From a virus, in the IMG/VR virus record IMGVR_UViG_3300047160_007655, positions 6,780-70,779 of that record: a DNA stretch of 64,000 nt; one strand, written 5' to 3'. The notes under the pieces were generated by a model. The model was not told the DNA's origin. It saw nothing but the letters and a program-made list of their open reading frames with translations, and searched no databases. This document shows positions 760 through 39,918 of this stretch, one piece after another. Position 1 is the stretch's first letter. Every line of letters begins with the position of its first letter. The translations under genes were made by a program, and so were the position numbers.

Positions 760-939
760 TTACTTGGATTCGCGCACTTGTCGCTTTTTAATTTTCGGCT
801 CTAGGCTGGATTCTTCCAGTTCCTTCAGCCGGGCCGAAAGCTCTGACTGAAAGTCATCGGTAGTGCGGGAGTGCGCGATGCGCGCCGACTGCTGCATCTC
901 GGGGGTGTAATGCGTCTTAGGGTTCAGCTTATTGTTCAT
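760..939 (-). CDS. 59-aa hypothetical protein (MNNKLNPKTHY...RESK)
   Basis: Read manually; its ATG overlaps the giant gene's TGA (ATGA) and its TAA lies inside the motif at 754-763. Confidence 0.55.
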   Translation of the reverse strand: MNNKLNPKTHYTPEMQQSARIAHSRTTDDFQSELSARLKELEESSLEPKIKKRQVRESK

Positions 940-3900
940 TGTCTTAGGTTACGGGGCTGTATATCAAATAGTCCGGCCTGCTCCATCGGCTTGGCCCGAC
1001 TTTCGGCCGCCTGCTTGGCAAGCCGCTGCTGGATGCCAGACTTGAGCATTTCAGTCTTCTGCATCTCTTTTCGAAAATCACCAAGGTCCAACCGGCCCCA
1101 GCCGTTGTCAGCCCATAGCTTCTTCTCTGCGAACCAGAGCGCCCCTTGGAGGGCATCCGGTTCGATGCCGAGCTTTTCGGCAGCATACCGGAACGCCTTT
1201 TGGCTGAAAGCAAAATCTGCATCGTTGACGCCTTTTCCGTTCTTCGGGAGAATGCGCCAGCGGTCCATGAAATCTGAATAGCCGAGCCGCCGCATCGTCC
1301 GGTCGGCCCACACATCCACGGTAGCCTCGTGGCCCGTCCCGAGGAGGTTCTTTACAAAGTTGAGAGTCTTCGGCCCAGCCGACTTTTCGAGCCATTCCCG
1401 GGCCAGTACTTGCAGCACTGCATCAGAGCTCACGCCGAATTTCTGCCCGTTACTCTGGCGCGGCAAAAGGCCGTGCTCGTGAATCCATTGAGCCAGATAC
1501 GTAGCCTCGCTAGGTGTCTTGGGCGGCTTGGCCACCTTCCCGGCGTCCACCTGTTTGTCGTACCACTTCGCCAGCTTTCCGTCCGCCAGCTTGTCTACGC
1601 CCTCCTGATACTTCTTCAGAAGCTTGTCGTACCGGCCGCTTTTGTATCCCTCAAGGGCGTCCAGTGCATAGGCATAGTTGCTATCCGGCGCATTCTGCGG
1701 AGATGTGGCGGCCAACAGCTCGGCCATCATCTGTGCGTGCTTGCCAAACATCGCCTTGAGCTTCGGCACAAAATCGGAATACCACTTGAGTCCGGAGTCG
1801 TACTCCGGCGTGCCCTCGTACTTGCGCGCCTCGCTCGCCAATCGGTCGCCAAATTCCTGCACCGCTTTTCCTTCGGAGCCCGCTTGTTTGTACAGCGGCG
1901 AGTTGACAATATCGGAGCTGACTTCGGGGTCTTGCCCGTTGACCTTGTTGAATACTACGGCTTCAGGAAAATGCGTCTTGAGTTCCGCGTTGGTCATGTC
2001 GGCCGCCTCGCGAGAGCTGAGCGCTTTTCGCGTGCCGATACCGGCGAGGCTGAGCTCTTCTGGTCTATTGGTTGGCGCGGGAATTCTTTTTCCAAAATCC
2101 AGCCCCATCGAAAAAGGCTCGCCGCCGGGGAGCTGCGAATAAAAATCGAGGTTCTTTGCGTCCTTGCCTACGACAGTGTTCTCATGTTTCGCCGGAGTCA
2201 GAGAGCCATCGCCGTACAATAGCCCCTTGTTGATTAGGACTGACTCTTGGCCGTACTTGTTGCCGTACTGCTGCGCCTCCTCGGGAGTCATCCCGGGCAC
2301 GAGAAAATTCCGGCCTTGGTCAACGCCTTTGTAGTAGCCGCGCACCTCGTGCGGATTGTAGCCATCTGCAATGAGAGCCTTTTCGAGGTTGTCATTGGCC
2401 GCCTCGTTCACATCGTTGTTGCCGGGGCCGAGGGATTCTTTGGTGGCCGTGACTATGGCCCAGTTGGGCTGCTTGAGCGCGGCCGGGAGAGACGTAGCCT
2501 CTTTGAAGTCGTCTGCTGAGGGCGCCGCCGCGATTCGCTCCGGCTGGCTAGAGGGCTTAAACTGGTGGAACGGAGGATACGCCGTATAATCAGAATATTG
2601 GGAATGGATTTTGACCGGCAGTTTCGTTTCTCCTGCCTCCGCAGCTTGAACGATTCGATGCATCCCATCTTCAACGATTGCTTTTCCGGTATTCGGGTTG
2701 TATGCAATAAGCGGCTCGCCCTCGGTCTTCGAGCCTCGTCCTGACCGAATATTTTGAAGCGTCACAGCATATGCGTTTTTTCCCACTGAAAGAGCTGAAA
2801 GTGGAACTGACACAGTAATAGGCTCGTTCCGGTCTACTCCTTGTCGCAATTTTTCTATAACATCCGCATTTAGTCCCTTTGGAGAAAATTGCACATCCTG
2901 CGGAATGGCCGAGGTAACCCGGGCCATCATGTGCCCGGTAGGCCCCTCGAATGTGTCGCTGACCGAAGTCGGCTCGCCAAAAAGGTTGCCCCTAATCCGA
3001 TTGATTTTCGGATTGATGACATCACCGGTTAGGTTCTTCACGCCGCGCTGCTGCAAATCGGTTGCGAGTTCCCGGTAAAGCGTGCTGGCTATTCCTTTGC
3101 CCTGCTCGTCTGGATTCACTCGGACGGAGCCTACAAAGGCATCATCTGGGCCTGTCTGATGGGCGTCCATTGAGGCCACGACTTTGCCCGAGGGGTCAGT
3201 CACCTCGTACGCCAACATGCCGGTTCCGTAATCGGTGCGATTGATTTTCAATCCGCGCTCTTCAAGGTCGCGCCCGGCCTGAGTCTTGGGCATGAACTGC
3301 TCGGTGGCCTTCATGGAGCGCACCGGCGTCTTGGTGAACTTCGCAACCGCGTTTGCGTCTCGATTCACATAGCCTTCAAATCCGGCTTGGTGAATCCGGT
3401 TCTCGTACATGGTGACGGCGGCCCGCGTGTCCATCGGTGCGTATCCCTGCGATTCGAGCTCAGACGATGTGGGATACAGCCCTTGCGGGTCCTCCTGAAA
3501 ATCATACAGCCGCCCCGAGCGAACCTCCGCCTTGTAGCGCAAGTCGCCAAGGCCCGGCTCTTTTTCATAGCCCTTTGTTCCGAGGTAAGTGCGAGGGACA
3601 TACAGCTCCGGGTAGTCCCGGCGCCGGGTCGCTTCGGCGCCTGCAATGCCAGTCCCGTGCATGGCGGGGTCCAGTTCCTTGAGCCCTTCCACATCGCTGT
3701 AATGAATGAGCGGCTCTTTCTTTTCTCCGGCCTTTGGTTTGAACTGGGCGCCGGTCTTGTCGACAACATCTATATTGCCCGGCGTTTTGGACTTGTCGTA
3801 ATCCTCGAAAACAGCTTTGTCGATGCTGTCATTATCCACGCCAGTGGCGCGCCAAGCGTCCAGCAGCTTAGTGCCACGGTAATGGGTGACGATTGCGGAG

Positions 3901-6900
3901 TTTTGGTCAGGAGCAGCAGCTTGTGCATCATGGAAACCAGACAAAAATCGGTCTTTGAACTCGTTAAAAGTCTCTCCGCCGGGCGGACGTTTATCTGGAT
4001 TGGCCGTTAGGTCGCGAATCTTCGGCAACATATCGGAGGTAGGCTTGCCCTCGATAGTCGGCCCAAAATTCCACGGCCTCAGCCGGTCATCCGAGGTGAT
4101 AGTGGCCCCGGGATTTTCTTTCTGAATCGCCCGAGCCGTTTCCATCGTCCGGTCAAGGTCAGATGAAAAAATCTGTTTGACCCCGCCCTGCTTGGCAACA
4201 TCGGTTGCCGCCGTAGCCGCCTCTGCCCGGCCCTTGTTGTCCAGAGGCACGTTGATGTGGCCCCGGATAAGGTCTTTGTCCGGGTCGGCATTGTTCATCT
4301 CGGTTGAACCGTGCCGGACAATGAATGTCTTTGGCCGGAATTGTTTTCCACCGGTCTCAATCAATCGCTGCGGATTAATCGTACCTTGCTTTTTTCCGAA
4401 ATTGTACGCTTCGAGCTGGTCGGCTTCGTCACTGTCTAACCGGGCCTCGCCTTGCTTAATTTGCTGAAGCTCCAGAGCGCGCTCGTACGCTTCACTGCGG
4501 TCCAAAAACTCGCCCTCGTTGGTGACAAAGCCGTCTACTAATCCCTCCGGGCGATTCATGGCGCCCAGCATCAAATCATCTTCGCTCATATCGGGATGTT
4601 TTTCCCGAAGGTATTCCATCGTTGCCTGAGCGTGAATCAGCCCCTCGTACATTTTGCCGGAGTCTTCATCCATCACGGCGGCCATCTTTACGGCGCGAGG
4701 ATTCTTGCTGGGCGCGAATTGCATGGTAGGTTCGCCAGCAAGTCCGGCGTTCCTCTGTTTCATGCTGTTGACCCGGTCTTCCAACTCCTTAAAAAGTTCT
4801 TCCGAAGGGAGCAGATTTTTTGGGTCCGCAAATTGTCTCTTCTCGAACGGCACAAAATCGGGGTCTCCTTTTACGGGCAAAGACCCATCAGCCCGGCGCA
4901 TGTGCCGTCCAGCAAAGTACCACGAGCTTTGCATCAAAAGCTCAGACATCAAAGCGCGGCGAGCTTCGGGCGAAAACAGTTGATAATGCGTAAGTAAGGC
5001 GTTGTACTCTCCACGGGGTCCAAACTCATTGCCTTCGGGCGTGTGACCGAAAAAGTCGTGAACGAATCTCAGAACTTCATTTACGTTCAGCTCATATCCG
5101 TGTCGAACAATGCCCGAGGGCGCTGTCAGGAGGTTATTCTGAATCTCTGGGGACGCCGCTTCCAATCCTCCGGCGGCGCCAAACTCGGTCGCTGTCGGGA
5201 GGAAATAAAGATGCTTGTTGTTGATGACATCGGCAACCATATCTCGGGAGCTCTTGTAAGGCTCGCCTTTGTTAGGCCACGGCTCAACATCAATGCCCGA
5301 GTCAATGATGCGCTGCCCTTGGTCTTTCATCTCTTGCAGCATCTGACGGTACCCCGCGATTACCTTCGGGTCATTGGGGGCGTGTGGGGTATCTTCCAGA
5401 TAATCCGCCAGCCGCATCAAATAATCCATCGGCACGGGCTGATTATTTGGCAGCACCGGCTTGGGAAGCCCTATAGATTCAGCGTAGTCATCCGACATTC
5501 TCGCCGCTTCGGGATTTCGAAGCCGGTCTCGCGCCGGGAGAGCCTGAAAAGATTTTTCCACTTCTGGTGCAGGAACAACCGATGCGGGACGGTCTTCTTC
5601 ACCACGCCGAGGCATGAATCCCGCCTGTAAGGTCAGGGTATTGCCTCCGAATTTCGTCTGCTCTCCGGCGTGCTCAGCATGAGCAATGTTTCGGAGGTTT
5701 AAACGCTGATACGATTCGAGCATCTCCGGCACATTTCCGAGCGCGGCGATTTCGTTGCGCAGAGGATTGACTTCCTGAACCTCGCGACCTTCAATACCCA
5801 AAGCCCTCGCTGCCCTGCCCTCGAACGAACCACGAGGCACTACCGGCGGTTGGACCCGGCCCGGGAGTGTAGCTTGAGAAACCTCTTGGCCCAGAATATT
5901 ACCGGGGACACGAGCCTCGCCAGTGGAAATGCGAGGGGTCTTGGGGAGCTGGCCGGTTCCAAACAGCATGGAGATAAAGTCGGCTTTACGCTGGTCAAGG
6001 GCGCCCGCACCCTCACGCAGAGGAGGCGCGTACGCTCCAGCTGCCGTTGCTTCGCGAGGAACAACGAGTGGAAGTCCGGAGCCAGTTCTTCCGGCCTGCT
6101 GATTACGAGTGAACGACTGCGTGTCATTTAAAAGCTCCTGCCATGCGGCGGGTGTCAGCTCGCCATTTTTGATTTCGTACGGCGCAAGGTCGGACCGGCC
6201 TTTCTGTCCGAGGAAAGCCGCGAGCCGGACAGCGTTGGCCGCGAAAACTTCGGGCACCCAACCGCCCCACTGCTTTTCGCCGTTTGCCAGCGAGAAAATT
6301 CGGTGCGGGAAAAATAGCTTGGGATAAAGGGCGCGTACGGAGTCGGGCAACGAGCGGTACGCTTCAATAATAGCCCGGCGGACCTTCCGAGACTGAACCG
6401 GCGCACCGGCGGGCTCATTGGGCGCGCTCCGATAGTCCACCTTGACGCCGGACTGCTGTCCCTGCGCTTCGGCTAACAGCCCGGAGACTTCACGCTGGGT
6501 CATCGTTGCGCCGGGCGCACGTTCATCCGGAACGCTGGCGTTGATTTGTGCGGTTTCTGCTGGTGGCTGCGGCGTCTGCGGCACTGGTGCGGGTCTTCCG
6601 CCGGTTGGCAGAATCGGAGGTTGCGCACCCGCCTGTGCTGGTTGCTCCCCAGTAGGGAGTGCCTGACGGATGCGCTCAATTGTATCGGCGCTTAGCGGCA
6701 GCCCGAGACCTTCGCTGGTTCGGCCTGCGAGCGGCTCTTGGCCGAAAAACTGCATGACTTGGCCGAGGGTCCGGGCGATTTTCTCCGGCATCTGTTTGCC
6801 GGGCTCAAGGGTTGGACCTGAGTGTTTAAACCACGCATCGAAATTTTCCGCGAGCTTTTCCCGAGCGATGTATCGGTCAGACACCGCTTGCTGCTCTTCC

Positions 6901-8975
6901 GGCGTCAGCACTGTGCGCCAGTCCACCGGTCCTTGCTGGGTGATGTTGTCCTTTATCTGCTGCTCGGTCGGCATTTCGCCGCCGGTCCGTTGAGCTTCCT
7001 GCGAGTACTGCAAGGCCGTCTGACGGTATAACTTCTCCAATGCCTCGGCTTGGCCCCAGCCTGATTTGTCCAGAACGACAGACCGCCAATCCGGACCCGT
7101 ATCCGAGCGGTTAAGCAGAGAAGCGTAATAGCGGCCAAAAGCATCCCACTGATTAGCATATTGATTTTTAACTGTGGAGTCTAAGTCGCGCAGTGTAGAT
7201 TCGCCGAGCACGTCTTCGAGGGCGTGAAAAGCCTCGTGCGGCGCGGAGCCGGGCTCCGTCACGACAATGACTTTCTTGGCGTTGCCGTTCTTATCGGTCA
7301 GCGTAGTTGTGAAACCGTCTTCGCTCGCGAGTTCGGCAGCTCGGTCCGCAGAAACCCCGGATTGCGTGAGAGCGTTTTGAATCTGTTCCTGATTGTCACC
7401 AACAAAGATTTGCGCATTGGGGTTTAAACGCTGCAAAAGCAGACGAGTCGCGTTGACGCGAGTTCGCTGGCCCGGCGTAAGCACGCCAAAAGCCGAATTG
7501 TGCATGTCCTCCAACGCAGGAAGGGACCCATCCGAGGGAATGGGATTATTTACATCGAAACCTCGCGGCGCGACAATCTGCCCGCTGATAACATGGCGCC
7601 CAACCTGTCTGGCCCCACCGAGGAGGCCGAAAGCCGTTCCCAAACCGACTGCGGCTTGGCGTTCCTGCGGAGTGTCTGCCCCAGCAGCTTGCCCAACGTC
7701 AAACGCCGCTCCCTTGGCGAATTCAGCAGCCGCTGTTGGTGAAGCTTGGACAATATCTTTGATGGCTTGTGCATAGTCGGATTTCATCGGGGCTTTACCG
7801 GCGACTTGCGCGCCCCAATCGGCAAAGTCATTGAATCCGGCTTGAGCTGCCTTGGCGGCAGTGGTGATGGGCTTGCTCACGAGTCGCCCGGCAAACCCTC
7901 CGCCAATCTCAGGCACTAATCCGGCGTGCTCGGCAACCGTTCCGAGAGCCTCCTGAGCCAAGGCCCCAGCGGCATGATGACCTGCGGCAATTCCAGCGGC
8001 GAGCGCCGCAGCGGGTCCAAATTTTTCAACTCCCTTTGCCGCCAGTGCGCCGCCTTTTCCAGCCACCTGCATAGTTGTCCCCACGCCTTTTTCGAGCGCG
8101 GGAGTAATTCGGGAGGCAAGGTCAAACTCAGGGAGTATGGTTCGTCCAGCGGCCCCGGCCAATCGAGTCGCACCGCCAATCGCTTCCCACGAAAATGGGT
8201 CGGTAAGTTTGGCCGTTTCCTCCGGCTGGACTTGCTGCGTTGGCTCTCCTCCGGTAATTGCTTGCGGGATTGGTCCTTGACCGGCGGCGATTTTACCGGC
8301 CTGCTCGTGCAAGGCGAGCGCATCGAAAAGGGCGTTGCGCTTGTCGTTGTCGTCATATTCGTCCAGCCCTTTCGTAATTCCGAGGCCCCGGCCTGCGGCT
8401 TTCGCGGCTTTGCTGGCGCCGGTAAGAAGCCCGGTCATGCCCTGCTCGATGGAGCTCCAAGCGGTAGCTAACGCTGAGCGACCGGCCGATTGCTCCTCTT
8501 CGGCGTCCTTTAGCTCCTCGGGAGTCGCGCCGGGCTTGGCTGCCTTACCAAGGCTATTCAACAGATTAATCGTGCCGCCAGTGGCTAGCGCGCCAAACCG
8601 ACCAAGCCCCGCAAAAGTGTGGGCTACGTTCTTGAGGCTCCCGCCGACCGTGAGACCTTTGTACCACGGTTGCTCGCGCAGCTGATGATAGGCGTCCGCC
8701 ACCTTATCAACCATCCTCGGGTCCGTTTGCAGGTCCGGCCGGGCGGCGAATTGGGAGACCAAATCAAACTTGTCGCCTGATTGAGTTGTCAGGTCGGCAA
8801 GGTCTTTCGCAGATAGAGAGAACGGGTCAACAGGTTTGCCATCCTCGCCGACAAGCTGTCCCGGCTGCACTTGAGGTGATGGCGCTGGTTGACTCTGAGC
8901 CTGCTGCCAGTATTGGCTTTGCTCTTCCGGCGAAACCTGAGCGGCTTGGCCGGTCTCTGCGTCTACAAACGGCAT
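936..8975 (-). CDS. Giant polyvalent virion/ejection protein: zincin-like HExxH region, HDxxGH domain, histidine phosphatase, ART-like, GNAT, ParB-like, DUF3293-like and DNA-glycosylase-like domains
   Basis: Motifs HEAFH..EKLAE; RFVHDFFGH; IVRHGST..FSSDLDRTMETA..PPGGETF..IVTH; VRVNPDEQGKGIASTLY; VEDGMHRI; LLAATSPQ..KTLNF..TVDVW; position at the end of the ejection-protein block. Confidence 0.85.
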   Translation of the reverse strand: MPFVDAETGQAAQVSPEEQSQYWQQAQSQPAPSPQVQPGQLVGEDGKPVDPFSLSAKDLADLTTQSGDKFDLVSQFAARPDLQTDPRMVDKVADAYHQLREQPWYKGLTVGGSLKNVAHTFAGLGRFGALATGGTINLLNSLGKAAKPGATPEELKDAEEEQSAGRSALATAWSSIEQGMTGLLTGASKAAKAAGRGLGITKGLDEYDDNDKRNALFDALALHEQAGKIAAGQGPIPQAITGGEPTQQVQPEETAKLTDPFSWEAIGGATRLAGAAGRTILPEFDLASRITPALEKGVGTTMQVAGKGGALAAKGVEKFGPAAALAAGIAAGHHAAGALAQEALGTVAEHAGLVPEIGGGFAGRLVSKPITTAAKAAQAGFNDFADWGAQVAGKAPMKSDYAQAIKDIVQASPTAAAEFAKGAAFDVGQAAGADTPQERQAAVGLGTAFGLLGGARQVGRHVISGQIVAPRGFDVNNPIPSDGSLPALEDMHNSAFGVLTPGQRTRVNATRLLLQRLNPNAQIFVGDNQEQIQNALTQSGVSADRAAELASEDGFTTTLTDKNGNAKKVIVVTEPGSAPHEAFHALEDVLGESTLRDLDSTVKNQYANQWDAFGRYYASLLNRSDTGPDWRSVVLDKSGWGQAEALEKLYRQTALQYSQEAQRTGGEMPTEQQIKDNITQQGPVDWRTVLTPEEQQAVSDRYIAREKLAENFDAWFKHSGPTLEPGKQMPEKIARTLGQVMQFFGQEPLAGRTSEGLGLPLSADTIERIRQALPTGEQPAQAGAQPPILPTGGRPAPVPQTPQPPAETAQINASVPDERAPGATMTQREVSGLLAEAQGQQSGVKVDYRSAPNEPAGAPVQSRKVRRAIIEAYRSLPDSVRALYPKLFFPHRIFSLANGEKQWGGWVPEVFAANAVRLAAFLGQKGRSDLAPYEIKNGELTPAAWQELLNDTQSFTRNQQAGRTGSGLPLVVPREATAAGAYAPPLREGAGALDQRKADFISMLFGTGQLPKTPRISTGEARVPGNILGQEVSQATLPGRVQPPVVPRGSFEGRAARALGIEGREVQEVNPLRNEIAALGNVPEMLESYQRLNLRNIAHAEHAGEQTKFGGNTLTLQAGFMPRRGEEDRPASVVPAPEVEKSFQALPARDRLRNPEAARMSDDYAESIGLPKPVLPNNQPVPMDYLMRLADYLEDTPHAPNDPKVIAGYRQMLQEMKDQGQRIIDSGIDVEPWPNKGEPYKSSRDMVADVINNKHLYFLPTATEFGAAGGLEAASPEIQNNLLTAPSGIVRHGYELNVNEVLRFVHDFFGHTPEGNEFGPRGEYNALLTHYQLFSPEARRALMSELLMQSSWYFAGRHMRRADGSLPVKGDPDFVPFEKRQFADPKNLLPSEELFKELEDRVNSMKQRNAGLAGEPTMQFAPSKNPRAVKMAAVMDEDSGKMYEGLIHAQATMEYLREKHPDMSEDDLMLGAMNRPEGLVDGFVTNEGEFLDRSEAYERALELQQIKQGEARLDSDEADQLEAYNFGKKQGTINPQRLIETGGKQFRPKTFIVRHGSTEMNNADPDKDLIRGHINVPLDNKGRAEAATAATDVAKQGGVKQIFSSDLDRTMETARAIQKENPGATITSDDRLRPWNFGPTIEGKPTSDMLPKIRDLTANPDKRPPGGETFNEFKDRFLSGFHDAQAAAPDQNSAIVTHYRGTKLLDAWRATGVDNDSIDKAVFEDYDKSKTPGNIDVVDKTGAQFKPKAGEKKEPLIHYSDVEGLKELDPAMHGTGIAGAEATRRRDYPELYVPRTYLGTKGYEKEPGLGDLRYKAEVRSGRLYDFQEDPQGLYPTSSELESQGYAPMDTRAAVTMYENRIHQAGFEGYVNRDANAVAKFTKTPVRSMKATEQFMPKTQAGRDLEERGLKINRTDYGTGMLAYEVTDPSGKVVASMDAHQTGPDDAFVGSVRVNPDEQGKGIASTLYRELATDLQQRGVKNLTGDVINPKINRIRGNLFGEPTSVSDTFEGPTGHMMARVTSAIPQDVQFSPKGLNADVIEKLRQGVDRNEPITVSVPLSALSVGKNAYAVTLQNIRSGRGSKTEGEPLIAYNPNTGKAIVEDGMHRIVQAAEAGETKLPVKIHSQYSDYTAYPPFHQFKPSSQPERIAAAPSADDFKEATSLPAALKQPNWAIVTATKESLGPGNNDVNEAANDNLEKALIADGYNPHEVRGYYKGVDQGRNFLVPGMTPEEAQQYGNKYGQESVLINKGLLYGDGSLTPAKHENTVVGKDAKNLDFYSQLPGGEPFSMGLDFGKRIPAPTNRPEELSLAGIGTRKALSSREAADMTNAELKTHFPEAVVFNKVNGQDPEVSSDIVNSPLYKQAGSEGKAVQEFGDRLASEARKYEGTPEYDSGLKWYSDFVPKLKAMFGKHAQMMAELLAATSPQNAPDSNYAYALDALEGYKSGRYDKLLKKYQEGVDKLADGKLAKWYDKQVDAGKVAKPPKTPSEATYLAQWIHEHGLLPRQSNGQKFGVSSDAVLQVLAREWLEKSAGPKTLNFVKNLLGTGHEATVDVWADRTMRRLGYSDFMDRWRILPKNGKGVNDADFAFSQKAFRYAAEKLGIEPDALQGALWFAEKKLWADNGWGRLDLGDFRKEMQKTEMLKSGIQQRLAKQAAESRAKPMEQAGLFDIQPRNLRQ

Positions 8976-9491: not shown

Positions 9492-11159
9492 TTATGGATT
9501 TGGCACCCAGCGCAGCTTTCGCCCCGAAGGGAGCGTGACCGTAGGACCGGCGGCTTGTGCGGTAGCTCCTTCAATTTCACCAGCAGGAGACACGACTGGA
9601 ATGTCTTGGTCAGGCGGCGCTCCCGAAGCAATTCGTGACTCATTCGCATCGAGTTGTTTGCCCAGCTGCTGAGCCTGAGCAAGTCCGGCCTGAATGGATT
9701 TCTCTTTGCCGAGATACGCGCCGCGACCAACACGCCAGAGGTTCTGACGCTGCTCCGGAGACAGGGCGCCTTTCTTCAAAAGCACTCGCTCAACGAGCGA
9801 TTTAAAATTTGGTATGCGCGCCGCTTGGTCAACGAGTTTGTCCCATTTGAATTCGCGAATTACAGCCTGTGGGTCGTGTAGCTTGATGAAATTCGAAACA
9901 AGACCAATATCCTCCGCATTCAAATCAGCATCACCCATCCGTTGTTGCTGCGGCGTAAACTTGTTTATATTGCGAACCGCATCGGCCATCGAGTTGTAGT
10001 ATCCGACTGACTCGGCCCATTTCTTATAAGTCTCTTTTCCAATCTCCGTCTTGTACACTTCAGGCGCGGTTTCGCCGGGCTGAGTGATATATCCTAACGT
10101 TGGCGGCCGAGCAGGGACTGGTGTAACCAGCTGCGCCTGCGCAGGCGCCGGAGTTGTCGCAACGGGCGTAACTGTTGGTTGCGCAGATGCTGAAGGTAAA
10201 GGATACTGAGCGTCTACAAAACCCTGAATGGTCTCGGGGCTGGCCTTGGCGGCAAATTGCTCTGCGTCTTCGGCGCCCTGCGTCTTCAAATACTGCGCGT
10301 ATTCGGCGCGGTACGTGCCCTCGTTTTGCGGCGTCACAATAGTCCGGACCGGCCCGGGCGTTCCTTGGCCCTGCCCCTGAATCGGAATGCCCGGAGCACC
10401 TCGCTCACCCTCACTCGGATTTTCGATAGGTATTTGACCCCGCATCGGATGCGTGTCCGGCATCAACTGATTAATCTGATGTACATAATACCAATAGGTA
10501 TCGGACCCATTAGCCCCAAGGTTTTTCTGCGGGGGAGTTACGTCTTCATTAAAGGCATTAAAAACTACCAGATGCTTCTGGCCCGCTGTATCCGTAATTT
10601 CTTTTGTGGACGCCGGAGTCAAGCGCGTTAGCCAGCTCTGAAGGGCGTTGTTCTTTGCGAGGATGTCATTGCCCGCCTGCGCGGCCTTGGCAAAATCGGT
10701 CGTGCCATCCGGCCGGACGTACTTCTGCATCGACTCACCGTACCACGGGCCGATTTTCTGAAGGGTATCGAGGCCGCCCTCGCCATAAATATTAGTGGCT
10801 TGCTGTTTGGCAATCTGCTGTTGCGCCAGCGCGGTAGCGCCCGGCAGCGTTTGAGACCCGGCCTGTGCCGTCTGCTGCGCAAGCTGGTTTTGCGCTGCGG
10901 TTGCGCCGTAGGCCGAGGTGCGGGCCTTAATCGCGTCAGGCGAAACGTACTCGCCGAGCTCTTCGAGCAAGGCGCGTTTCTTCGCCTGCCCAACCGCGCC
11001 GATTCGGTCAACGATGTCCTGCGTATTGATGAAGCCGTTATGGACGGCGTCCACCAGCTGCTTCACAGCATCTGGCGTGACGATTGGCTGAATGTTTGGC
11101 ACTGCGGGCTGAGCCGCAATGTTTAACGGTTGTACGTCTGGAGCTCCGGGTCCTGCCAT
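9492..11159 (-). CDS. Putative internal virion/DNA-ejection protein
   Basis: Gln/Ala/Pro-rich; between pilot-like and giant genes; start moved to MAGPG, 4 nt after the upstream stop. Confidence 0.65.
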   Translation of the reverse strand: MAGPGAPDVQPLNIAAQPAVPNIQPIVTPDAVKQLVDAVHNGFINTQDIVDRIGAVGQAKKRALLEELGEYVSPDAIKARTSAYGATAAQNQLAQQTAQAGSQTLPGATALAQQQIAKQQATNIYGEGGLDTLQKIGPWYGESMQKYVRPDGTTDFAKAAQAGNDILAKNNALQSWLTRLTPASTKEITDTAGQKHLVVFNAFNEDVTPPQKNLGANGSDTYWYYVHQINQLMPDTHPMRGQIPIENPSEGERGAPGIPIQGQGQGTPGPVRTIVTPQNEGTYRAEYAQYLKTQGAEDAEQFAAKASPETIQGFVDAQYPLPSASAQPTVTPVATTPAPAQAQLVTPVPARPPTLGYITQPGETAPEVYKTEIGKETYKKWAESVGYYNSMADAVRNINKFTPQQQRMGDADLNAEDIGLVSNFIKLHDPQAVIREFKWDKLVDQAARIPNFKSLVERVLLKKGALSPEQRQNLWRVGRGAYLGKEKSIQAGLAQAQQLGKQLDANESRIASGAPPDQDIPVVSPAGEIEGATAQAAGPTVTLPSGRKLRWVPNP

Positions 11160-12995: not shown

Positions 12996-13847
12996 TTATG
13001 TGTAGCCCCCACCAAATGAGGTTCGAGCTGCTTGTACTAACCCAAACAGGGTTTGTTCTTGCGCATTAGAAAGCGCAGTGTGGACAGACGTAAAAGTGTG
13101 CCAGTTTTGTGATGGGTTGCCCAGAGTGCCCAGCTTTGAAATCTGAAAATTCCCATTGGGTCTATGCGTAAAAGTCAAATCGGTTCCACTCGAAGTGACC
13201 GGCCCGGTCGCTCCGTTCATTCGGAGCGCATAACAGTTGTTGATTGCCGTACGATTCAATGATTGATACACGTAAACATTTGGCGCATTTGAAAAGGCAG
13301 GCATGACCAAGGTGCTCGTAAAATAAATCATTCCTTGGGTACCTGCCACACCAAACCCTTCGTACGCTGCAAAATTGGCTGCGCCCTGAACCACTCCGGC
13401 GCTTGAGCTATCGCTTAATCCGTACATGCTCACGCCCGCGTTGTTGTCGCTTGCGAGCGCTGTTGAGATGTTTATGCCAGTGTCTAAATGCGTTGAATCA
13501 CCGATAAGCCGCAAACCGGCGACAGTGATATCTTCGGGTGCGGGAGCCACACCGATTGCTGACCACAGTGCATTGCCCGCCGTAAAATAAAGAGGCGTCT
13601 GGGCCTCAATCAATCCTCCCGGCGAATAGAGATTTACGGCAATCATCGCGGAGTCCAGACCGGCGGAAATCAGCCCACACCAGAACGTAGCCATAACGTT
13701 TTTGGTGATTTGCGAGGGCGCTGCTCCACCATTAGCCACCACTTGCGTTGCCCAAGCATTTGCCACGGTGGTTCCAGCGGCGCAAGGGCCGCCTGCTGCG
13801 CGTTGCGGACTTGCCAAGAGTCGTCTAACGATTACTGGGTTTGGCAT
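12996..13847 (-). CDS. Putative tail/virion-surface protein
   Basis: 283 aa, Gly/Ala/Thr/Asn-rich, located in the tail block. Confidence 0.55.
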   Translation of the reverse strand: MPNPVIVRRLLASPQRAAGGPCAAGTTVANAWATQVVANGGAAPSQITKNVMATFWCGLISAGLDSAMIAVNLYSPGGLIEAQTPLYFTAGNALWSAIGVAPAPEDITVAGLRLIGDSTHLDTGINISTALASDNNAGVSMYGLSDSSSAGVVQGAANFAAYEGFGVAGTQGMIYFTSTLVMPAFSNAPNVYVYQSLNRTAINNCYALRMNGATGPVTSSGTDLTFTHRPNGNFQISKLGTLGNPSQNWHTFTSVHTALSNAQEQTLFGLVQAARTSFGGGYT

Positions 13848-13853
13848 ATGGCT

Positions 13854-15899
13854 TTATTCAAATCCTAATCCGGTAGACAGGATGGGCGGCACAAGCGCCG
13901 CCAGTTCTGCCTCCGCTAATTTTGTTGCAATAATTTCCGCCACTCGATTGGCAGCCCGTTGCGAGACCACGCTCTCTGCCTGCCCCGCAGCGATGGCCAT
14001 AAAGTCCTCAAACGAAACCTGCGCCGATTCGGTCGATTCAAAATGGTACTCCGGCGCGACTGCCAGCATCGCAACCAGCTCTTCCATCGTCTGCGCCTGA
14101 GCGCCCGAGCCGTCATATCGCACGGCGTTCAATCCGGTTTCGTCTTGGCAAGCAGTGCCGTCGCCGTCAGTGTCAGGGGGCACAGAAAACGCCCAAGGCC
14201 GAATCCACCGAATCGTAACTGGTCCGTGGCCCACGATGGCAAGCTGGAAAGATTCGTCGATATTGTCATTGTCCGGACGCTCCACGGGACAGGACCCATC
14301 AAGGTTCGGGTCCGGTTGCGTGTTCGCATCCTCAGTTCGGAGGACCCGAGATTGAGGTTTAAAGGCAAAAATCGGGCTGTTGATGTCGAGTGTGAGTTCA
14401 CTGGAAAGGGACCCCTGCGAGATGGCCAGCTTCTTGTTCATTATTTGCCGGAACGCGCCGCGAGTGCCGCCCGCGTAGTAGACGCCAATGTCCAAATCTT
14501 CCGACAGCGCCGCGAGCGCTACATCCACCCAAGCTAAGCGGCATCTTTCCCCCGGCGGCTTGCCCGGCGATGCCGCCGTCTGGCCGAAGTAACCCCGCGT
14601 TTCCATTTTCCAAGCAATCGGGCAACCATTGTCGAGACGCTCAGGTCTAAAAGCTTGCCAAAGACGATTCTTGCCATCAGTATCAACAGAGACATAGTAA
14701 ATCCGCTCCTCGCTGGCAATCTCGCCGTACACCCATTCAACCGGGCGCGTGCCTGTCCAGTAGCCGGACCAGCACGGGCCGGAGTCATCGCTCAAAGTCG
14801 TCAAGCTCGCGTTGTTCAGCACCCAAGTATGTTTGTTGTACACGTCCTCGGCCGGAACGCTCATAAGCAAGTACTGACCGAAGGAAGCAGCAGCCACTAA
14901 GCCAAGGTCTTCATTCAAGAGCGACTTGCTGACGAGCATTTCATTGTCTCGAATCGGCAACCGGGCCGTCAATTTACCGCTGGTGGCTGGGTCAAAAATC
15001 GCGATGCCGCCTGCCGAAAACCACACCACGTGGCCGTAGTGCGAGAGCGCGGACCGGTTCGAAAAGCATCCGACCTGCAAAATTTCTGTCTGGAAATTCG
15101 GAGTCGTCGGCCAAGTGCTACGGTCGCGAATGTTCGCCTGCAAAATGCTGGCGTCGATGCTGGTGAACACCATTAGCTGAGGCGACTCAATCGAGGGCGT
15201 CGGGACCATCGCCGTCACTTCGTCCTTGAAGTAGAAGCTGGTCGTGCCGCCGAGATAAATTTGCTCGCGGAACGAAAACGGATTGGCGATGTCGCTCGCA
15301 AACACCTGATTGCCGTCCGCCACCCATAGCCGGTCGCCTACCCACCGAATCATGGAGCCGGAGGGCGTGCCAAAAGCATCTCCTCGGACGTGCCCGTTCG
15401 CGGAGCCATCGTACCACGCTGGAGCCGTAAAGCCGCCGTCCTGAATGAACATGACGGCCTTAGGCGGGATGACTTTGATGGGGGCCGAAAAAACCGTTGA
15501 CAGCCGTTCGGCGGCTTGTATGGTCAAGGCCCAAAACACCTGCTTCGCGTTGGGCGAGAGTTGGATGTTTGGCAGTACCGTCCAGTCAGTGAACGGAAAT
15601 GAGCTGACGTAAATCTGCCCCGAGATGGCAACCAGTATTTGCTCGATGCCGACTAGCGGCCGGAAAATCGCGCAGCCTTGCAGGTTGCCGTCTGGCAGCA
15701 GCTTGATGCATTTGTAGCCGGGGCGGCACGAAAATGCGCCGCCGAGGTTAATCATGTTTTCGGCAGACCAAGCGTAGCCGAGCGGCAATTGCGAGGGGTC
15801 GCAGTCCGATTTCACTCCTCTGAAAAATGTGGAGTCGAAGTCGATGATGCGAGCCGTCAACTGCGGCCCCTGCTGAGTGCCTTGTCCGCTGGTTGCCAT
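13854..15899 (-). CDS. Tail nozzle / tubular protein B-like (P22 gp10/T7 gp12 position)
   Basis: 681-aa beta-propeller-like protein (AENMINLGG..RPGY; WVGDRLWVA; VGCFSNRS) following an adaptor-size gene. Confidence 0.65.
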   Translation of the reverse strand: MATSGQGTQQGPQLTARIIDFDSTFFRGVKSDCDPSQLPLGYAWSAENMINLGGAFSCRPGYKCIKLLPDGNLQGCAIFRPLVGIEQILVAISGQIYVSSFPFTDWTVLPNIQLSPNAKQVFWALTIQAAERLSTVFSAPIKVIPPKAVMFIQDGGFTAPAWYDGSANGHVRGDAFGTPSGSMIRWVGDRLWVADGNQVFASDIANPFSFREQIYLGGTTSFYFKDEVTAMVPTPSIESPQLMVFTSIDASILQANIRDRSTWPTTPNFQTEILQVGCFSNRSALSHYGHVVWFSAGGIAIFDPATSGKLTARLPIRDNEMLVSKSLLNEDLGLVAAASFGQYLLMSVPAEDVYNKHTWVLNNASLTTLSDDSGPCWSGYWTGTRPVEWVYGEIASEERIYYVSVDTDGKNRLWQAFRPERLDNGCPIAWKMETRGYFGQTAASPGKPPGERCRLAWVDVALAALSEDLDIGVYYAGGTRGAFRQIMNKKLAISQGSLSSELTLDINSPIFAFKPQSRVLRTEDANTQPDPNLDGSCPVERPDNDNIDESFQLAIVGHGPVTIRWIRPWAFSVPPDTDGDGTACQDETGLNAVRYDGSGAQAQTMEELVAMLAVAPEYHFESTESAQVSFEDFMAIAAGQAESVVSQRAANRVAEIIATKLAEAELAALVPPILSTGLGFE

Positions 15900-16903
15900 T
15901 ACCGGATATCGTAATCGTACTTGTCACGAGGGTTGCTCATATCGAGCACCTGAATCGGATTGTATGTCGGCGGCTCCGCTTTGAGTTGCGCTTCAATCTC
16001 CATGCGCGCCCCGTCCGCCTCGCACGAGTGTGCGTCCGCGTAAAATTTGTCGTTGTAATTCTTCACCGCTTGCAGCATGACGAGCAGTCCCCGGCGGCTG
16101 CGCAGGGGGATATGGTCCCAACGCGACTTAAACACCGGATTGTTTTTGAGATATGCAATCCGGACCCAATTGCACGAGCGATTAAGTTGGAGGCGCGTGT
16201 AATTAGGTACTTGTTCATCGGGCTCGTACACCGCGAGGTTAATACCGGTCGTTCCAGAAGAGTCGACTGTAGCGAGTCGAATATTTCCCACTGTAATATC
16301 TTTGAAGACGTTAGTAATACGCGCAATGTTGGGTGCTTCAACGTCGGGGATTGCGGCGCCAAAAACGGTCGGCACCAAGTACCCGTCGCACCATTGCCCG
16401 TTGACTTGATGCCTCAACACCTGCCCCTTGTCATCGTAGCCATAGATAATCAACTTCTTGCCGTTGTCCGCTTCTGTCTGCAAGTACGCCACCACTTTCG
16501 CCGGAGTGATAATATCGCGCATCGTACAAAAATTGTGCCCTCGGTCGTCGGCCGCCCATTCACAAATCGTCCGGCAGCTGCCCGGCCCATTTAGATGGAA
16601 CTGGAAAAGCTCGCCCCGAAACAATACAGGCTGTCCGCCCACTTGAATGCCAATGACCGTTTCGACTTCACGCGGAAGTGACACGCAGCGGCGCCCGCAG
16701 CCCGCCGGTGAGTTACAAATAGAGCCCGTCACCGCGCAGGAACATCCGGCCGTGCACACGTCGAGGTATCCGCGCAGGCCGTCAAGGTCCGCCTTGTTGG
16801 CAGTGAGTGCCACGGCATCGCTAATCCACTTCAGCAGAAGTGCGTCATTGCAATTGCCGACCGTTTTCTTCGCTTCGTCCCAGATGTCGTTAATCAAAAA
16901 CAT
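15899..16903 (-). CDS. Putative head-tail adaptor / tubular protein A-like
   Basis: 334 aa, synteny; Cys-rich insert CTAGCSC..C..CGRRC. Confidence 0.55.
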   Translation of the reverse strand: MFLINDIWDEAKKTVGNCNDALLLKWISDAVALTANKADLDGLRGYLDVCTAGCSCAVTGSICNSPAGCGRRCVSLPREVETVIGIQVGGQPVLFRGELFQFHLNGPGSCRTICEWAADDRGHNFCTMRDIITPAKVVAYLQTEADNGKKLIIYGYDDKGQVLRHQVNGQWCDGYLVPTVFGAAIPDVEAPNIARITNVFKDITVGNIRLATVDSSGTTGINLAVYEPDEQVPNYTRLQLNRSCNWVRIAYLKNNPVFKSRWDHIPLRSRRGLLVMLQAVKNYNDKFYADAHSCEADGARMEIEAQLKAEPPTYNPIQVLDMSNPRDKYDYDIR

Positions 16904-17319
16904 TAGTAGGCGCCCTCTTCCTTATCCTCACCGCCCTCGTCATTCTCATGTTTCTTCGAGAGCTCGCGAGCAATCTTGTCCAGCGCATCGCTGGCGGCGT
17001 CATAGCTGCGCGCCGGGATGTGCGCCTCGGGTTCTTCGCCGTCAACCTTGTTGATGGTGCGAACTTCGATTTTACACTCGTACCAGTGCTTACCATCCTT
17101 GCCTACGTAACTGGTTTCCTCGCGCTTCACGACTTTCACAAGCAGCTCGCAGGCGTCTGGCAGCTCAAGGTCTAATGGGCCGCAGTAATGAAAATGCGGA
17201 TAAACAACTTCATCCGGGTCGCCTAGCCCACCGATAACATCATTCATGTGGTCCATCGGAGGACCCGGCGGACGGTGCTCATTTTTCTCTTCTCGGGTGA
17301 CGCCTAAATTCGCTTCCAT
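16903..17319 (-). CDS. Acidic hypothetical protein
   Basis: 138-aa ORF, late motif 7 nt upstream, 1-nt overlap with the next gene. Confidence 0.7.
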   Translation of the reverse strand: MEANLGVTREEKNEHRPPGPPMDHMNDVIGGLGDPDEVVYPHFHYCGPLDLELPDACELLVKVVKREETSYVGKDGKHWYECKIEVRTINKVDGEEPEAHIPARSYDAASDALDKIARELSKKHENDEGGEDKEEGAY

Positions 17320-17340
17320 ACTCTTTAGATAGTTACCGTA

Positions 17341-17538
17341 TTAGGGGTTCTTGACTACCAAAACATAGGGCGGTACGGCCGCCGTTTTTGTGCCTCCCTG
17401 CGGGCGTTTGCAGCTGTGCGACAACAGTCCGCCAACGTGCGGCGGCGTCACCGAAGGGTCGTTCGAATATCCGGCCGGAGTGTCTTTGACTCGCGGCGTA
17501 CATTTGCCCACCGTGCTGTGCTTATTGCCCTGTCTCAT
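17341..17538 (-). CDS. Small hypothetical virion protein
   Basis: 65 aa, ATGA overlap with the upstream fibre gene. Confidence 0.6.
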   Translation of the reverse strand: MRQGNKHSTVGKCTPRVKDTPAGYSNDPSVTPPHVGGLLSHSCKRPQGGTKTAAVPPYVLVVKNP

Positions 17539-18653
17539 AGCTTAATCCATTTTATGAAGTTTGGACCGGCCCCACCAAACCCTTGCTTGTTCGGGCCGCT
17601 AATCGAAGTCTTTGCGTACAGCCGCCACGAGGCAACGCTCCCCGTGGTGTTTGTCAAAATAAGCGGAATCATAAAAAACATGCTGGCGCCTGTCGCGGCA
17701 TTCGACACTGAAGTAAATACTCGCTCAGCGCCCGGAACGTCAGTCAGCGTTGGGTCAACCACCTTCAAAAACACACTGCCAGACAACGTCCCGCCTCCGA
17801 GGTTTGACCAAGACCCAAACGCCATGAACAGTACCAAATATGTCGAAAGAGAATTGTCCGGGGTCGTAAACAACGCGCCGGTTGGGGAATAAACGCTGGT
17901 CAACGCGCCCGCACCGAGGACCGGCGAGGCTCCGCTTTGCAGGTGCGTTGCGGAGCCTTTGTTTCCCTGCTGTCCCGTTATGCCGGTCGCGCCGGTTGGC
18001 CCTTGATTTCCCGCGTTGCCCGTATCGCCTTTCGGGCCTTTCGGACCTTGGACGGTTATGCCCGGCAGTCCGGCAATGATTACGATTGCTCCAGACGGAA
18101 TGATGGGCGGAGAGGACGAAAATGGCGACAGCAGTTGAAACAGCACTGACGTGCCGGACACGTTCAACACTGTATAAAACCCGGAGCCCGCAATCTCTGC
18201 GAAGAGCCCGGGCTGCACGACTTGGTTTGGCGCGACCTGAATGGAAATGTACGGCTGCGCGAGCGTCGGCTGGTCAAAATCCTGCGCCGTCTCGGTGAAA
18301 GCGTCGGGGCCGACCGCGCCTGCCGCGCCGGAGGCTCCTGCTGGGCCAGCTATGCCGTGGATGCCCGTTTCAAACAGCCGGAAAAAATAACACCCGAGCG
18401 ATTCGCCGGGCTGCCGAGGATTGGAAGCGATACCGGCATCGAGACCGCACGGCAGTTGCCACGCCACGTTGCCGCCCACATTTGCTTTTCCAACCGCCCC
18501 AAAAAACTGGGTCGTGAAAGTGTCAATCTGTGTCGGAAGCAACGCACAGCCCGGCGTATTGCAGGGATTGTTACATTGCATGAACGAACGGGTGCAGGCG
18601 TCCAAAGGATTTGGATTGCCCGGGGCCGTTCCGCACTCTGTGCAAATTCCCAT
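17535..18653 (-). CDS. Collagen-repeat fibre protein 2
   Basis: Gly-X-Y runs (GPKGPKGDTGNAGNQGPTGATG); Cys-rich N-terminus shared with its neighbour. Confidence 0.8.
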   Translation of the reverse strand: MGICTECGTAPGNPNPLDACTRSFMQCNNPCNTPGCALLPTQIDTFTTQFFGAVGKANVGGNVAWQLPCGLDAGIASNPRQPGESLGCYFFRLFETGIHGIAGPAGASGAAGAVGPDAFTETAQDFDQPTLAQPYISIQVAPNQVVQPGLFAEIAGSGFYTVLNVSGTSVLFQLLSPFSSSPPIIPSGAIVIIAGLPGITVQGPKGPKGDTGNAGNQGPTGATGITGQQGNKGSATHLQSGASPVLGAGALTSVYSPTGALFTTPDNSLSTYLVLFMAFGSWSNLGGGTLSGSVFLKVVDPTLTDVPGAERVFTSVSNAATGASMFFMIPLILTNTTGSVASWRLYAKTSISGPNKQGFGGAGPNFIKWIKL

Positions 18654-19793
18654 TTACGCAATCTGAAACCAGCTCAAGGAGGACCGGCCAGCGGTTACGG
18701 AATACGCTCCCGAGCCGTTGGTGTAGAACGCCTGAACTGCGATTGTCTGATTCAACGCCGTGGTTGTAACTAATCCTGACAGTGAAAAGCTCATCTCGCC
18801 GCCGGTGACTACCGTGCCCGCGTTTACGAATGTCACGGCCCCAGCCAGCTGAGCGTTCAGCGATGTGTTGTAGAGCGCCAACGTAGCCGCATTACCTCCC
18901 GCAACCGCAATGCCCACCACATCAAATGAGGCTATCACGGCATATGTTCCCACGGCCGTGGCCAAGAAAGAAAAGTCTCCTGCGGCGCCGAAGTTGACCG
19001 TTGTTTGAGTGGCGCCTGTAATACTGTAGTCCGAGCCGGTGGCGCCCGTCACGTAGCCGTTGTTTGATAGCAGATTGTCGCCAGACGGCCCGGTCGGCCC
19101 GGTTGCGCCCTGCGGCCCCTGACTTCCTACTGGGCCGATTGGACCCGTGTCGCCCTTGTCGCCCTTCGGTCCGGGGATGGTGGCGCCGGGCGAGCCGGTC
19201 GGAACAACCAACTTGCCCGCCGGAACAAAACCCGCGCCGGGGAACTTAGACAACAGAGTGATTGTAAGCGAGCCGGACGAATTGCCTCCGCTGATTTGAT
19301 ACCAGCCAGAGGTGTCAACGAAAACGTAACTGCCCACCAACATGGCGGGATTGAAAAAAGTTTGGATGGTAATGGAGCCGCCAACCGCCGGAGTGTTGAA
19401 CGGAGCCGTAGTTACCGTGTAGGCGTTGTGCCCTTGAGGCCCCTGTGCGCCATTCGTCCCAGCTGGCCCAGTAAGACCAATAATTCCATCGTTAAACAGG
19501 CGAAGAAAATAACAGGCCAGCCCTTCATCAGCGCCACGAGGATTATTAGGCAAACCAACATCGAGGCCGCAAGGTAATGACCAAACAACCTCGCCATTAA
19601 CCTCGGTCTTGATGACATCACCGAAAAAGTTTTTGGTAAAATTCTCAACGCGGCTGGGGAGCGACTCGCAGTCGACAGTATTGTGAACCTCGATTTTGCA
19701 CGGGTTGTCGCACTGCATGAACGAGCGCGTGCAGGCATCCAATGGATTTGGATTGCCCGGTTGTCCGTCTCCGCATTCAGTGCAGCCGCCCAT
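18654..19793 (-). CDS. Collagen-repeat fibre protein 1
   Basis: Gly-X-Y runs (GPKGDKGDTGPIGPVGSQGPQG); paralog of 17535-18653. Confidence 0.8.
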   Translation of the reverse strand: MGGCTECGDGQPGNPNPLDACTRSFMQCDNPCKIEVHNTVDCESLPSRVENFTKNFFGDVIKTEVNGEVVWSLPCGLDVGLPNNPRGADEGLACYFLRLFNDGIIGLTGPAGTNGAQGPQGHNAYTVTTAPFNTPAVGGSITIQTFFNPAMLVGSYVFVDTSGWYQISGGNSSGSLTITLLSKFPGAGFVPAGKLVVPTGSPGATIPGPKGDKGDTGPIGPVGSQGPQGATGPTGPSGDNLLSNNGYVTGATGSDYSITGATQTTVNFGAAGDFSFLATAVGTYAVIASFDVVGIAVAGGNAATLALYNTSLNAQLAGAVTFVNAGTVVTGGEMSFSLSGLVTTTALNQTIAVQAFYTNGSGAYSVTAGRSSLSWFQIA

Positions 19794-39363: not shown

Positions 39364-39918
39364 TTATTCTCTCCGAATATATAGCGTCTGGTCGATGGCC
39401 TTTGCCGCAGCATCTACCTGAAACGCCTCCCAATCTGTATTTAAAAACTTAGCGATGCAGGTGGCCGAATATTTTGGAGATGCACACACCAAATCATAAT
39501 TCAACTGCAATGCCCCGGCCGGTTTTACTTTCTGCCACAACAAAAATTGCTCGGACGACTTCGCCAATCTCTCCTCGATTGGAAAGACGGCATTCTCCAT
39601 TTTATTGTATTCTGCCGCGATGGCGCGCCACGAATTCTGGATTCCTGTGAGGGAGCGCGCCATGAAAATAAACCGGTAGTCCGCCGGTACGCTGGCGAGC
39701 CGGTCCGGCGATAAGAGCTTGAAGCAGTTAGTAAATTCGCCGCGCCGGATTTTGCCGGGGCATTCATATAGGCCGTACGGATTTCGAAATAGGGTAGTCG
39801 TGACGGCATCGAGCTGGGGAGTCTCTACATCGACTGCAAGTCCTCCCGCTTCCAAAATACGCATCATCATCGAAGTTCCGCTTCGTGCCTGCCCGCAAAC
39901 ACATACTCTGGGTGTCAT
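39364..39918 (-). CDS. Sulfotransferase-family protein
   Basis: VCGQARSGTSMMMRILEAGG PAPS-binding loop; NPYGLYE; FIFMARS..S; start set by the late motif. Confidence 0.7.
   Translation of the reverse strand: MTPRVCVCGQARSGTSMMMRILEAGGLAVDVETPQLDAVTTTLFRNPYGLYECPGKIRRGEFTNCFKLLSPDRLASVPADYRFIFMARSLTGIQNSWRAIAAEYNKMENAVFPIEERLAKSSEQFLLWQKVKPAGALQLNYDLVCASPKYSATCIAKFLNTDWEAFQVDAAAKAIDQTLYIRRE

Follow-up and report, generated by a model that had tools for sequence, protein, structure and literature searches.

A recurrent F-x-P junction peptide delimits the exchangeable modules of a giant phage polyvalent protein

The window analysed here is a 64,000-nucleotide stretch of viral DNA, corresponding to bases 6780-70779 of the single 70,779-bp contig IMGVR_UViG_3300047160_007655. 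A single minus-strand open reading frame (ORF) near the end of the minus-strand arm, running from window position 8975 to 936, encodes a protein of 2679 amino acids (P0001), as established from the ORF list, its translation and 84 large relatives. The plus-strand arm carries helicases, an RNA ligase and an exonuclease, and the long minus-strand arm contains tail-fibre-like ORFs together with many ORFs that match no family in PHROGs or Pfam. The minus-strand block that holds the giant gene includes tail-fibre-like ORFs and a weak virion-protein match, a placement among late or virion genes. Within the polypeptide, unrelated domains are joined in one chain: His_Phos_1, GNAT and DUF7178 score above their Pfam cutoffs, and a zincin-like domain and at least three further folded modules are present. 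The 2679-residue product is a late-gene, phage-type polyvalent protein composed of a carrier, six cassettes and a conserved tail. A short peptide recurs at the borders of its cassettes, and this junction peptide is a family-wide module delimiter.

The conserved N-terminal carrier block (residues 1-1118; window 5622-8975, minus strand, as for all features of this gene given below) ends in LTLQAGFMP and was defined by collinear alignment of relatives. Over residues 1-1120, 41-47 relatives are collinear with almost no internal block boundaries, and each of A, G, F and P in the closing AGFxP, within the terminal LTLQAGFxP, shows conservation of at least 90% across 42 sequences. The block gives no Pfam match and no PDB sequence match at E <= 0.1. 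At the opposite end of the chain, a conserved C-terminal block (residues 2142-2679; window 936-2552) aligns with 36-48 relatives and comprises a DUF3293-like part followed by DUF7178. Residues 1-1120 and 2140-2679 thus form collinear conserved blocks; in the intervening stretch, relatives have modules reordered, duplicated, missing or replaced.

Seven junction peptides punctuate the protein. The first, GFMP at residues 1119-1122 (window 5610-5621), closes the carrier block, as seen in the translation, the block ends and the 42-sequence alignment. It is followed by six QFxP copies: QFAP at residues 1419-1422 (window 4710-4721), QFRP at 1545-1548 (4332-4343), QFKP at 1744-1747 (3735-3746), QFMP at 1893-1896 (3288-3299), QFSP at 2029-2032 (2880-2891) and a second QFKP at 2138-2141 (2553-2564). 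An earlier sequence-only reading of the window had described an injected effector polyprotein punctuated by QFxP; its coordinates for the six copies and for GFMP match the ORF translation exactly, and the lysine that it reported after four of the six copies is borne out. The codons vary among the six QFxP copies (CAA or CAG, TTC or TTT, CCA or CCC), and synonymous codons vary among copies in four related loci as well (L084, L086, L087 and L092), with unrelated flanking bases. This synonymous variation points to selection on the peptide and makes a DNA-level repeat unlikely, in agreement with the peptide-level constraint that had been proposed.

Six QFxP copies contrast with 0.37 predicted by composition; 5000 shuffles gave 0.35 copies on average and 4 at most, never six. 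QF.P ranks first in the protein when all short gapped patterns are scanned without bias (6 versus 0.37, Poisson p = 3e-6). The best patterns of relatives lacking such a motif reach 1e-5 to 1e-6, little short of this value, so that the weight of the enrichment rests on the comparison with relatives. Elsewhere in the window, six-frame ORFs of at least 80 residues contain only two other QFxP, both in plus-strand ORFs, and the motif is restricted to the giant ORF, both here and in related loci.

A search with residues 1100-2300 returned 85 proteins including the query, of 1.6-4.2 thousand residues and many on contigs of about 70 kb. These proteins contain 198 QFxP, as many as nine in a single chain, nearly all of them past residue 1100 in the C-terminal half, and a QFxP-type word is the top pattern in many of them, with p down to 7e-17. 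The borders of the exchanged segments coincide with these sites. Between residues 1000 and 2400 of P0001, 53% of 192 BLAST block starts against relatives fall within 12 residues of a motif, where 12.5% are expected; 31 of the starts coincide with the Q itself, and block ends are most frequent at +3 and +4, on the P and the residue after it. When the 30 proteins that have four or more sites are all compared with one another, 1263 of 5237 internal starts come within 3 residues of the Q (77.6 expected) and 603 of 5384 block ends lie at 0 to +6 (79.3 expected), counts that come from related proteins and hence from events that are not independent. For example, 38 block ends fall in residues 1121-1140, just after GFMP; 41 block starts fall in residues 1401-1420 around QFAP, 15 of them exactly on its Q; nine block ends fall in residues 2021-2040 near QFSP; and eight block starts lie exactly on the Q of the QFKP at residue 2138. 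The resulting architectures are diverse and include N-?-C-D-B-F-G, N-A-B-C-D-B-G-H and N-B-B-B-C-B-C-E-G-H. Relatives therefore gain, lose, duplicate and permute modules at this very peptide, the outcome expected if modules are swappable there, as the sequence-only reading had held.

The same positions stand out in predicted structure. An AlphaFold2 model of residues 1400-2320 (921 residues, from 31 aligned sequences, mean predicted local distance difference test score (pLDDT) 73.9) shows confident domains set apart by segments with pLDDT below 50. All six QFxP motifs overlap such a segment or come within 3 residues of one; since such proximity holds for about 29% of the model, six of six is improbable by chance (roughly 6e-4 by our own arithmetic), although alignment depth breaks at the junctions and the low pLDDT there is partly non-independent of the block result. 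Specifically, QFAP lies at the end of a low-confidence segment (model residues 1-22), the first QFKP directly precedes one (349-385), QFMP lies within one (482-497), QFSP follows one (583-628) and the second QFKP lies within one (729-748). QFRP stands 2 residues ahead of the first strand of the phosphatase; the His_Phos_1 match begins at residue 1551, two residues past the motif, and alignment with yeast phosphoglycerate mutase pairs residue 1 of that enzyme with the Pro of QFRP. In addition, hydrophobic content dips on either side of the motif, to 0.17 and 0.14 compared with 0.27 overall (184 sites). At each cassette border lies a short hydrophilic linker that contains [A/G/T]-Q-F-x-P-[K/S]. 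The placement of the motif at domain borders, proposed from sequence, is upheld by the phosphatase start, the low-pLDDT segments and the block boundaries; the QFxP copies do not fall inside folds, and homologs carry the peptide at their junctions.

Across the family the peptide takes several versions. QFQP occurs seven times in P0050, QFMP five times in P0045, QFSP six times in P0030 and [KR]FQP eight times in P0026; AQFA(P) is found in P0018, FQAP(K) in P0019, P0022, P0029 and P0031, QAQP or QAMP in P0033, P0034 and P0046, and xFMP and xFSP in P0069 and P0060. The common core of the family is F-x-P by sequence comparison, with lineage-specific flanks, and QFxP(K) as first formulated describes this protein rather than the family. 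The sites of one protein also resemble each other: same-protein pairs share the x residue at a rate of 0.413 compared with 0.176 under the null, a value reached in none of 5000 permutations. With similarly flanked pairs left out, x is still shared in 142 of 343, and none of 3000 permutations reaches the observed value. Between lineages, the peptide shifts in concert at every junction of a protein.

The cassettes themselves are of varied kind. Module A, the HDFFGH domain (residues 1123-1418; window 4722-5609), has a PHROG 3170 match at residues 1298-1351 and tblastn matches to giant proteins of cyanophages and other phages. Module B, the GFVTNEGEFLDR domain or GFVT domain (residues 1423-1544; window 4344-4709), retrieves 142 representative proteins at E <= 0.001 in a full-library HMMER search, nearly all of them giant. 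Among 225 module-B instances in 206 proteins, 161 carry xFxP just upstream. P0199, an apparently free-standing module B of 107 residues, starts right past the motif position and has no motif, and P0197 likewise lacks it at module B; there are only two or three such cases. Neither module A nor module B matches a family in the Pfam library. Block-based architectures place two to six copies of module B per protein in P0015, P0039 and P0010, an indication that cassettes are amplified too.

Module C (residues 1549-1743; window 3747-4331) is a histidine phosphatase. Its His_Phos_1 match scores 96.6 bits against a cutoff of 21.7, the sequence contains the RHG motif as IVRHGST, and PDB sequence and fold matches lead to TIGAR and to phosphoglycerate mutases and other histidine phosphatases (Foldseek E = 2.8e-10). 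Among the matches listed in the Foldseek search of the 921-residue cassette model, only histidine phosphatases appear, and that search gave the other modules no fold assignment. Module E (residues 1897-2028; window 2892-3287) is a GNAT acetyltransferase, with Acetyltransf_1 at 27.5 bits against a cutoff of 20.7 over residues 1922-1982. Both identities are secure and agree with the labels given from sequence.

The remaining cassettes are less clear-cut. Module D (residues 1748-1892; window 3300-3734) is probably ART-PolyVal-like, a putative ADP-ribosyltransferase. Of its 30 ESM-Atlas neighbours, 28 fall in the ART-PolyVal set (score 0.93), a lead in which the listed clusters carry ART-PolyVal on 22% and 54% of their members, and relatives that share the module carry PF18760. 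Residues 1744-1892 give no Pfam match at E <= 1, and the structure model is poor in this region; the earlier ART-like label remains a lead from these neighbours and is not matched by a Pfam family. Module F (residues 2033-2137; window 2565-2879) is a small alpha/beta domain with no meaningful Pfam match. It had been called ParB-like, a label that is not confirmed: its Atlas neighbours are VapB/Arc-like in 25 of 30 cases and ParB_N/sulfiredoxin in 3 of 30.

In the C-terminal block, the DUF3293-like part scores 23.6 bits (E = 8.3e-5), under the cutoff of 25, and relatives with this block carry PF11697. DUF7178 follows at 42.5 bits; it is the only Pfam match of the C-terminal part, which has no PDB sequence match better than E 0.5. 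The description of this block as DUF3293-like plus glycosylase-like consequently keeps its first half as a sub-cutoff match, while the glycosylase finds no Pfam or PDB support. Among 29 relatives anchored on FSxGxDF, nine have xFxP within 30 residues of the border between the two parts, including QFSP and QFKP. Residues 2138-2330 (window 1986-2564) also give a weak match to the S-adenosylmethionine (SAM) lyase family PF23780 (E = 0.0072, 16.7 bits against a cutoff of 28), by which the segment is a possible anti-restriction SAM-degrading module.

The carrier block contains a zincin-like metallopeptidase domain at about residues 470-780 (window 6636-7568), recognised from HEAFH, a later glutamate helix, the alignment and a structure model. 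The HEAFH motif occupies residues 580-584 (window 7224-7238), and the glutamate helix contains E706 and E710. The 42 aligned sequences show no variation at H580, H584 or E706 and at least 90% conservation at E581 and E710. Among the 41 relatives with an N-terminal block, both motif histidines are present in all and the glutamate in 40, P0037 having HDALH; P0007 and P0008 show an HExxxH form in this block. An AlphaFold2 model of residues 440-800 (pLDDT 89.6, predicted template modelling score 0.86) places strands at model residues 82-86, 115-121 and 127-133 ahead of the HExxH helix (136-151) and the glutamate helix (253-280), with a long helical insert parting the two catalytic helices. The top rows of a VIA-align comparison comprise the lethal-factor-like domain of Certhrax, two Pro-Pro endopeptidases (PPEPs), anthrax lethal factor, collagenases and thermolysin. 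A precomputed PF26092 assignment exists for the 2679-residue protein. The domain is read here as a divergent zincin and predicted peptidase. A zincin peptidase alongside the enzyme array, as the sequence-only reading had anticipated for polyvalent proteins, thus finds its counterpart in a conserved zincin-like domain of the same polypeptide.

These features suggest a processing model. The junction peptide would be a cleavage site at which the polyvalent protein is cut into separate enzymes, most likely by the zincin of the same chain, a proposal to which about even chances are given. Cutting could take place inside the capsid or after ejection into the host, packaging and injection being themselves presumed. 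The scissile bond would probably lie on the amino side of the conserved Phe, with Phe at P1' and Pro at P3', by analogy with thermolysin-type and lethal-factor-type zincins. Enzymes of these two types cut before such a Phe. A uniform site would explain the free swapping of cassettes, as any module flanked by it would be processed correctly. A complex prediction with the zincin (A2 residues 30-340), Zn and the junction peptide of residues 2120-2159 scored 0.01 against a mark of 0.32 and is neutral on binding.

A further consequence would follow if the zincin cuts before Phe. Bacterial ClpS recognises an N-terminal Phe as a primary degradation signal, which is passed on to ClpAP. Enzymes released in this way would start with Phe, so that injected takeover enzymes might act early and then be degraded; the peptide would serve as release signal and timer at once, and its lineage-specific flanks as a private code linking the protease of each phage to its own cassettes. 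This extension is speculative and is considered improbable.

Several observations weigh against cleavage by the resident zincin. The VIA-align Z scores of its zincin neighbours are only 4-6.3, under the trust level of 8 for the tool; a Foldseek search of the zincin model against the PDB returns nothing at E <= 0.001, and no Pfam peptidase family matches the region at E <= 1. Distant relatives possess HExxH without a comparable repeated motif, and the zincin therefore does not imply the motif. The shorter pattern F.P is found eight times within domains of the 2679-residue protein. At the border between the DUF3293-like part and DUF7178 (residues 2283-2330; window 1986-2130), a low-confidence linker is present without F-x-P, so that in this phage the two parts may remain joined; the claim that every module is set off by the motif accordingly stands for the variable borders and fails at this one. 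The closest cultured-phage records match at most 14% of the protein. The shared descent behind the boundary counts and the partial overlap of the pLDDT result with them, given above, count in the same direction. Finally, according to the accessible text of the survey of polyvalent proteins, N4 vRNAP, ArdC and TraC1 carry metallopeptidase (MPTase) domains yet are delivered unprocessed (PMC5512222).

This last point leads to the alternative that the peptide is never cut and the protein acts whole, the motif being a hinge or cap between domains or a docking site that organises or unfolds the chain, with the capsid interior, the portal or ejection channel, or a chaperone as candidate partners. The motif adjoins domain ends, 2 residues ahead of the first strand of the phosphatase and just past its last, and could therefore pack on the domains. 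Plasmid polyvalent proteins are, like N4 vRNAP, described in the accessible text as delivered uncut (PMC5512222), and the accessible part of a preprint on phage phi24B places gp47, of 2811 residues, in the virion proteome with no mention of processing (bioRxiv 10.64898/2026.04.10.717836). The concerted change of sites would also fit a single co-evolving binding partner. On the other hand, the absence of the peptide from P0199 implies that the fold of module B does not need it; the x position and the residue ahead of F vary freely across lineages, which fits an enzyme subsite better than a packed element; and the motif is absent from all other virion ORFs in the window and related loci. An uncut chain is on balance unlikely, though it deserves serious consideration. 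A different division of labour, in which the peptide is a cleavage site for a separate phage maturation protease or a host protease and the zincin is an effector against host proteins, draws on the effector roles that the accessible text gives as an alternative for MPTases (PMC5512222). Lineage-specific versions of the peptide could track different hosts, and the zincins of the FQAP group do not stand out in the alignment, where by eye they look no different from those of QFxP proteins. Opposed to this are the near-invariance of the zincin wherever the N-terminal block occurs and the lack of a protease family among 20 neighbouring late ORFs in PHROGs and Pfam, a comparison in which nearly all ORFs matched nothing. 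Moreover, a head protease would normally cut head proteins too, and no other ORF in the window or related loci has the motif at a plausible maturation site. A separate protease appears distinctly unlikely.

Two further explanations would place the origin of the motif outside protein function. A short recombination or gene-conversion site could drive cassette exchange at the DNA level, with the peptide as its mere translation; the exact swapping of modules at the motif and its homogenisation within a protein are what such a site would produce. The synonymous codon differences in the window and in the four related loci, together with their unrelated flanking bases, contradict it, and homologous recombination needs more than twelve bases whose third positions vary, so that this origin is very improbable indeed. 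From P0001 in isolation, one might suppose that a common tetrapeptide had clustered by chance in a large protein, for here the Poisson p value is not far past the best patterns of motif-free relatives. The shuffles, the up to nine copies and p values down to 7e-17 in relatives, and the match of positions to module borders leave it a negligible probability, and the family data refute it.

Among known systems, the polyvalent proteins catalogued by Iyer and colleagues are the class to which this protein belongs; the Pfam accessions of the relatives, which we take to be ART-PolyVal, LPD38, LPD22 and radical SAM, presumably correspond to domains in that catalogue. As in the accessible text of that work, a giant late-gene protein here combines unrelated enzyme domains with a zincin-like peptidase, and the HExxxH zincin form has likewise been described for polyvalent MPTases (PMC5512222). 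There, polyvalent proteins were proposed to be split into functional units by their MPTase domains (Iyer, Burroughs, Anand, de Souza and Aravind 2017, PMC5512222), a proposal that the cutting reading makes concrete. In its accessible main text no junction or delimiter peptide is described, and "linker" has 0 occurrences (PMC5512222). In the present family, unlike that description, the candidate cut sites are explicit, lineage-specific and present at every variable border.

The closest functional analogue, by comparison of organisation, would be the MARTX toxins of Vibrio, effector arrays that are released by a cysteine protease domain acting in cis, according to the accessible text (PMC2900308). 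The likeness lies in a conserved delivery frame, a swappable effector array, a protease in cis and sites in unstructured segments. There is no kinship in sequence or fold: the MARTX enzyme is a cysteine protease activated by inositol hexakisphosphate (InsP6) with Leu at P1, whereas a zincin and F-x-P would be involved here. MARTX is, moreover, a secreted bacterial toxin directed against eukaryotic cells whose processing is demonstrated, whereas the present protein is a phage protein whose processing is proposed (PMC2900308, accessible text, for the MARTX side of these comparisons). Phage phi24B gp47 offers a parallel of another kind. In the accessible part of its description it is an exceptionally large ejection protein with LPD domains and a metallopeptidase domain, present in the virion proteome and unseen in the cryo-electron microscopy map, for which packaging and ejection are proposed (bioRxiv 10.64898/2026.04.10.717836). 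It resembles the window protein in size and in the metallopeptidase domain, a likeness of description; LPD38 (PF18857) is present in some of the more distant kin of the window protein. The accessible part of the preprint mentions no junction motif in gp47, in contrast to the present protein (bioRxiv 10.64898/2026.04.10.717836).

At the level of the protease fold, lethal factor and the PPEPs share with the predicted zincin an HExxH motif, a distant glutamate helix and, according to the model, a three-stranded sheet ahead of the active-site helix. VIA-align gives Z 6.2 for PPEP-2 (154 residues aligned), 6.0 for PPEP-3 and 5.8 for lethal factor, all under the trust level, and the window domain differs in its long helical insert and in having no sequence-profile membership in this kind, MEROPS M34. 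In the accessible portion of their literature, PPEPs are described as recognising proline-containing motifs. Viral polyproteins and the head-protease sites of phages (T4 gp21, phiKZ gp175) provide a more general precedent, with a short degenerate peptide at every border of a polyprotein or head protein. Here the motif occurs in one protein only and in none of the other virion ORFs, and the protease would probably act in cis. A literature search covering abstracts and accessible passages found no junction motif described for polyvalent proteins. The delimiter is a new, testable feature of the polyvalent class, and the protein is a new member of that class.

The delimiter provides exact positions for mutagenesis and N-terminal mapping. 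It also allows giant proteins to be divided by a simple rule into modules, many of them outside any known family, and it would account for the exchange of cassettes without loss of function. If cutting is true, pairs of site and protease could be used as orthogonal processing tools.

More distant loci differ in their repeats. Eighty IMG/VR loci found via the HDFFGH module contain almost no QFxP and no pattern clearly over background, with possible exceptions in PIGP (L051 and L070) and DIKAQA (P0076). P0076, a distant relative of 3233 residues, carries [D/G/S]-I-K-A-Q-[A/V] five times between residues 1295 and 2028 (IKAQ 5 versus 0.04 expected), and judged by its repetition this IKAQ-type peptide may be an analogous delimiter in another lineage. 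In the distant relatives L056 and L058, the HDFFGH-domain match at 10001-10780 lies outside the longest ORF at 13080-18815, so that the giant gene may be split into separate genes there.

Elsewhere on the minus strand of the window, several genes stand out. A serine recombinase lies inside the late arm at window 34743-35486 (Pfam Resolvase, E = 1.4e-23, with a weak Recombinase match). A nucleotide-sugar epimerase-like gene occurs among the structural genes at window 24704-25912 (PHROG 540, E = 1.8e-67), as does a weak sulfotransferase match at window 39364-40065 (26.4 bits against a cutoff of 27). Additionally, two adjacent ORFs of 372 and 379 residues at window 17535-19793 both match tail-fibre and collagen-like PHROGs over a short stretch, and by sequence are probably paralogous fibre genes.

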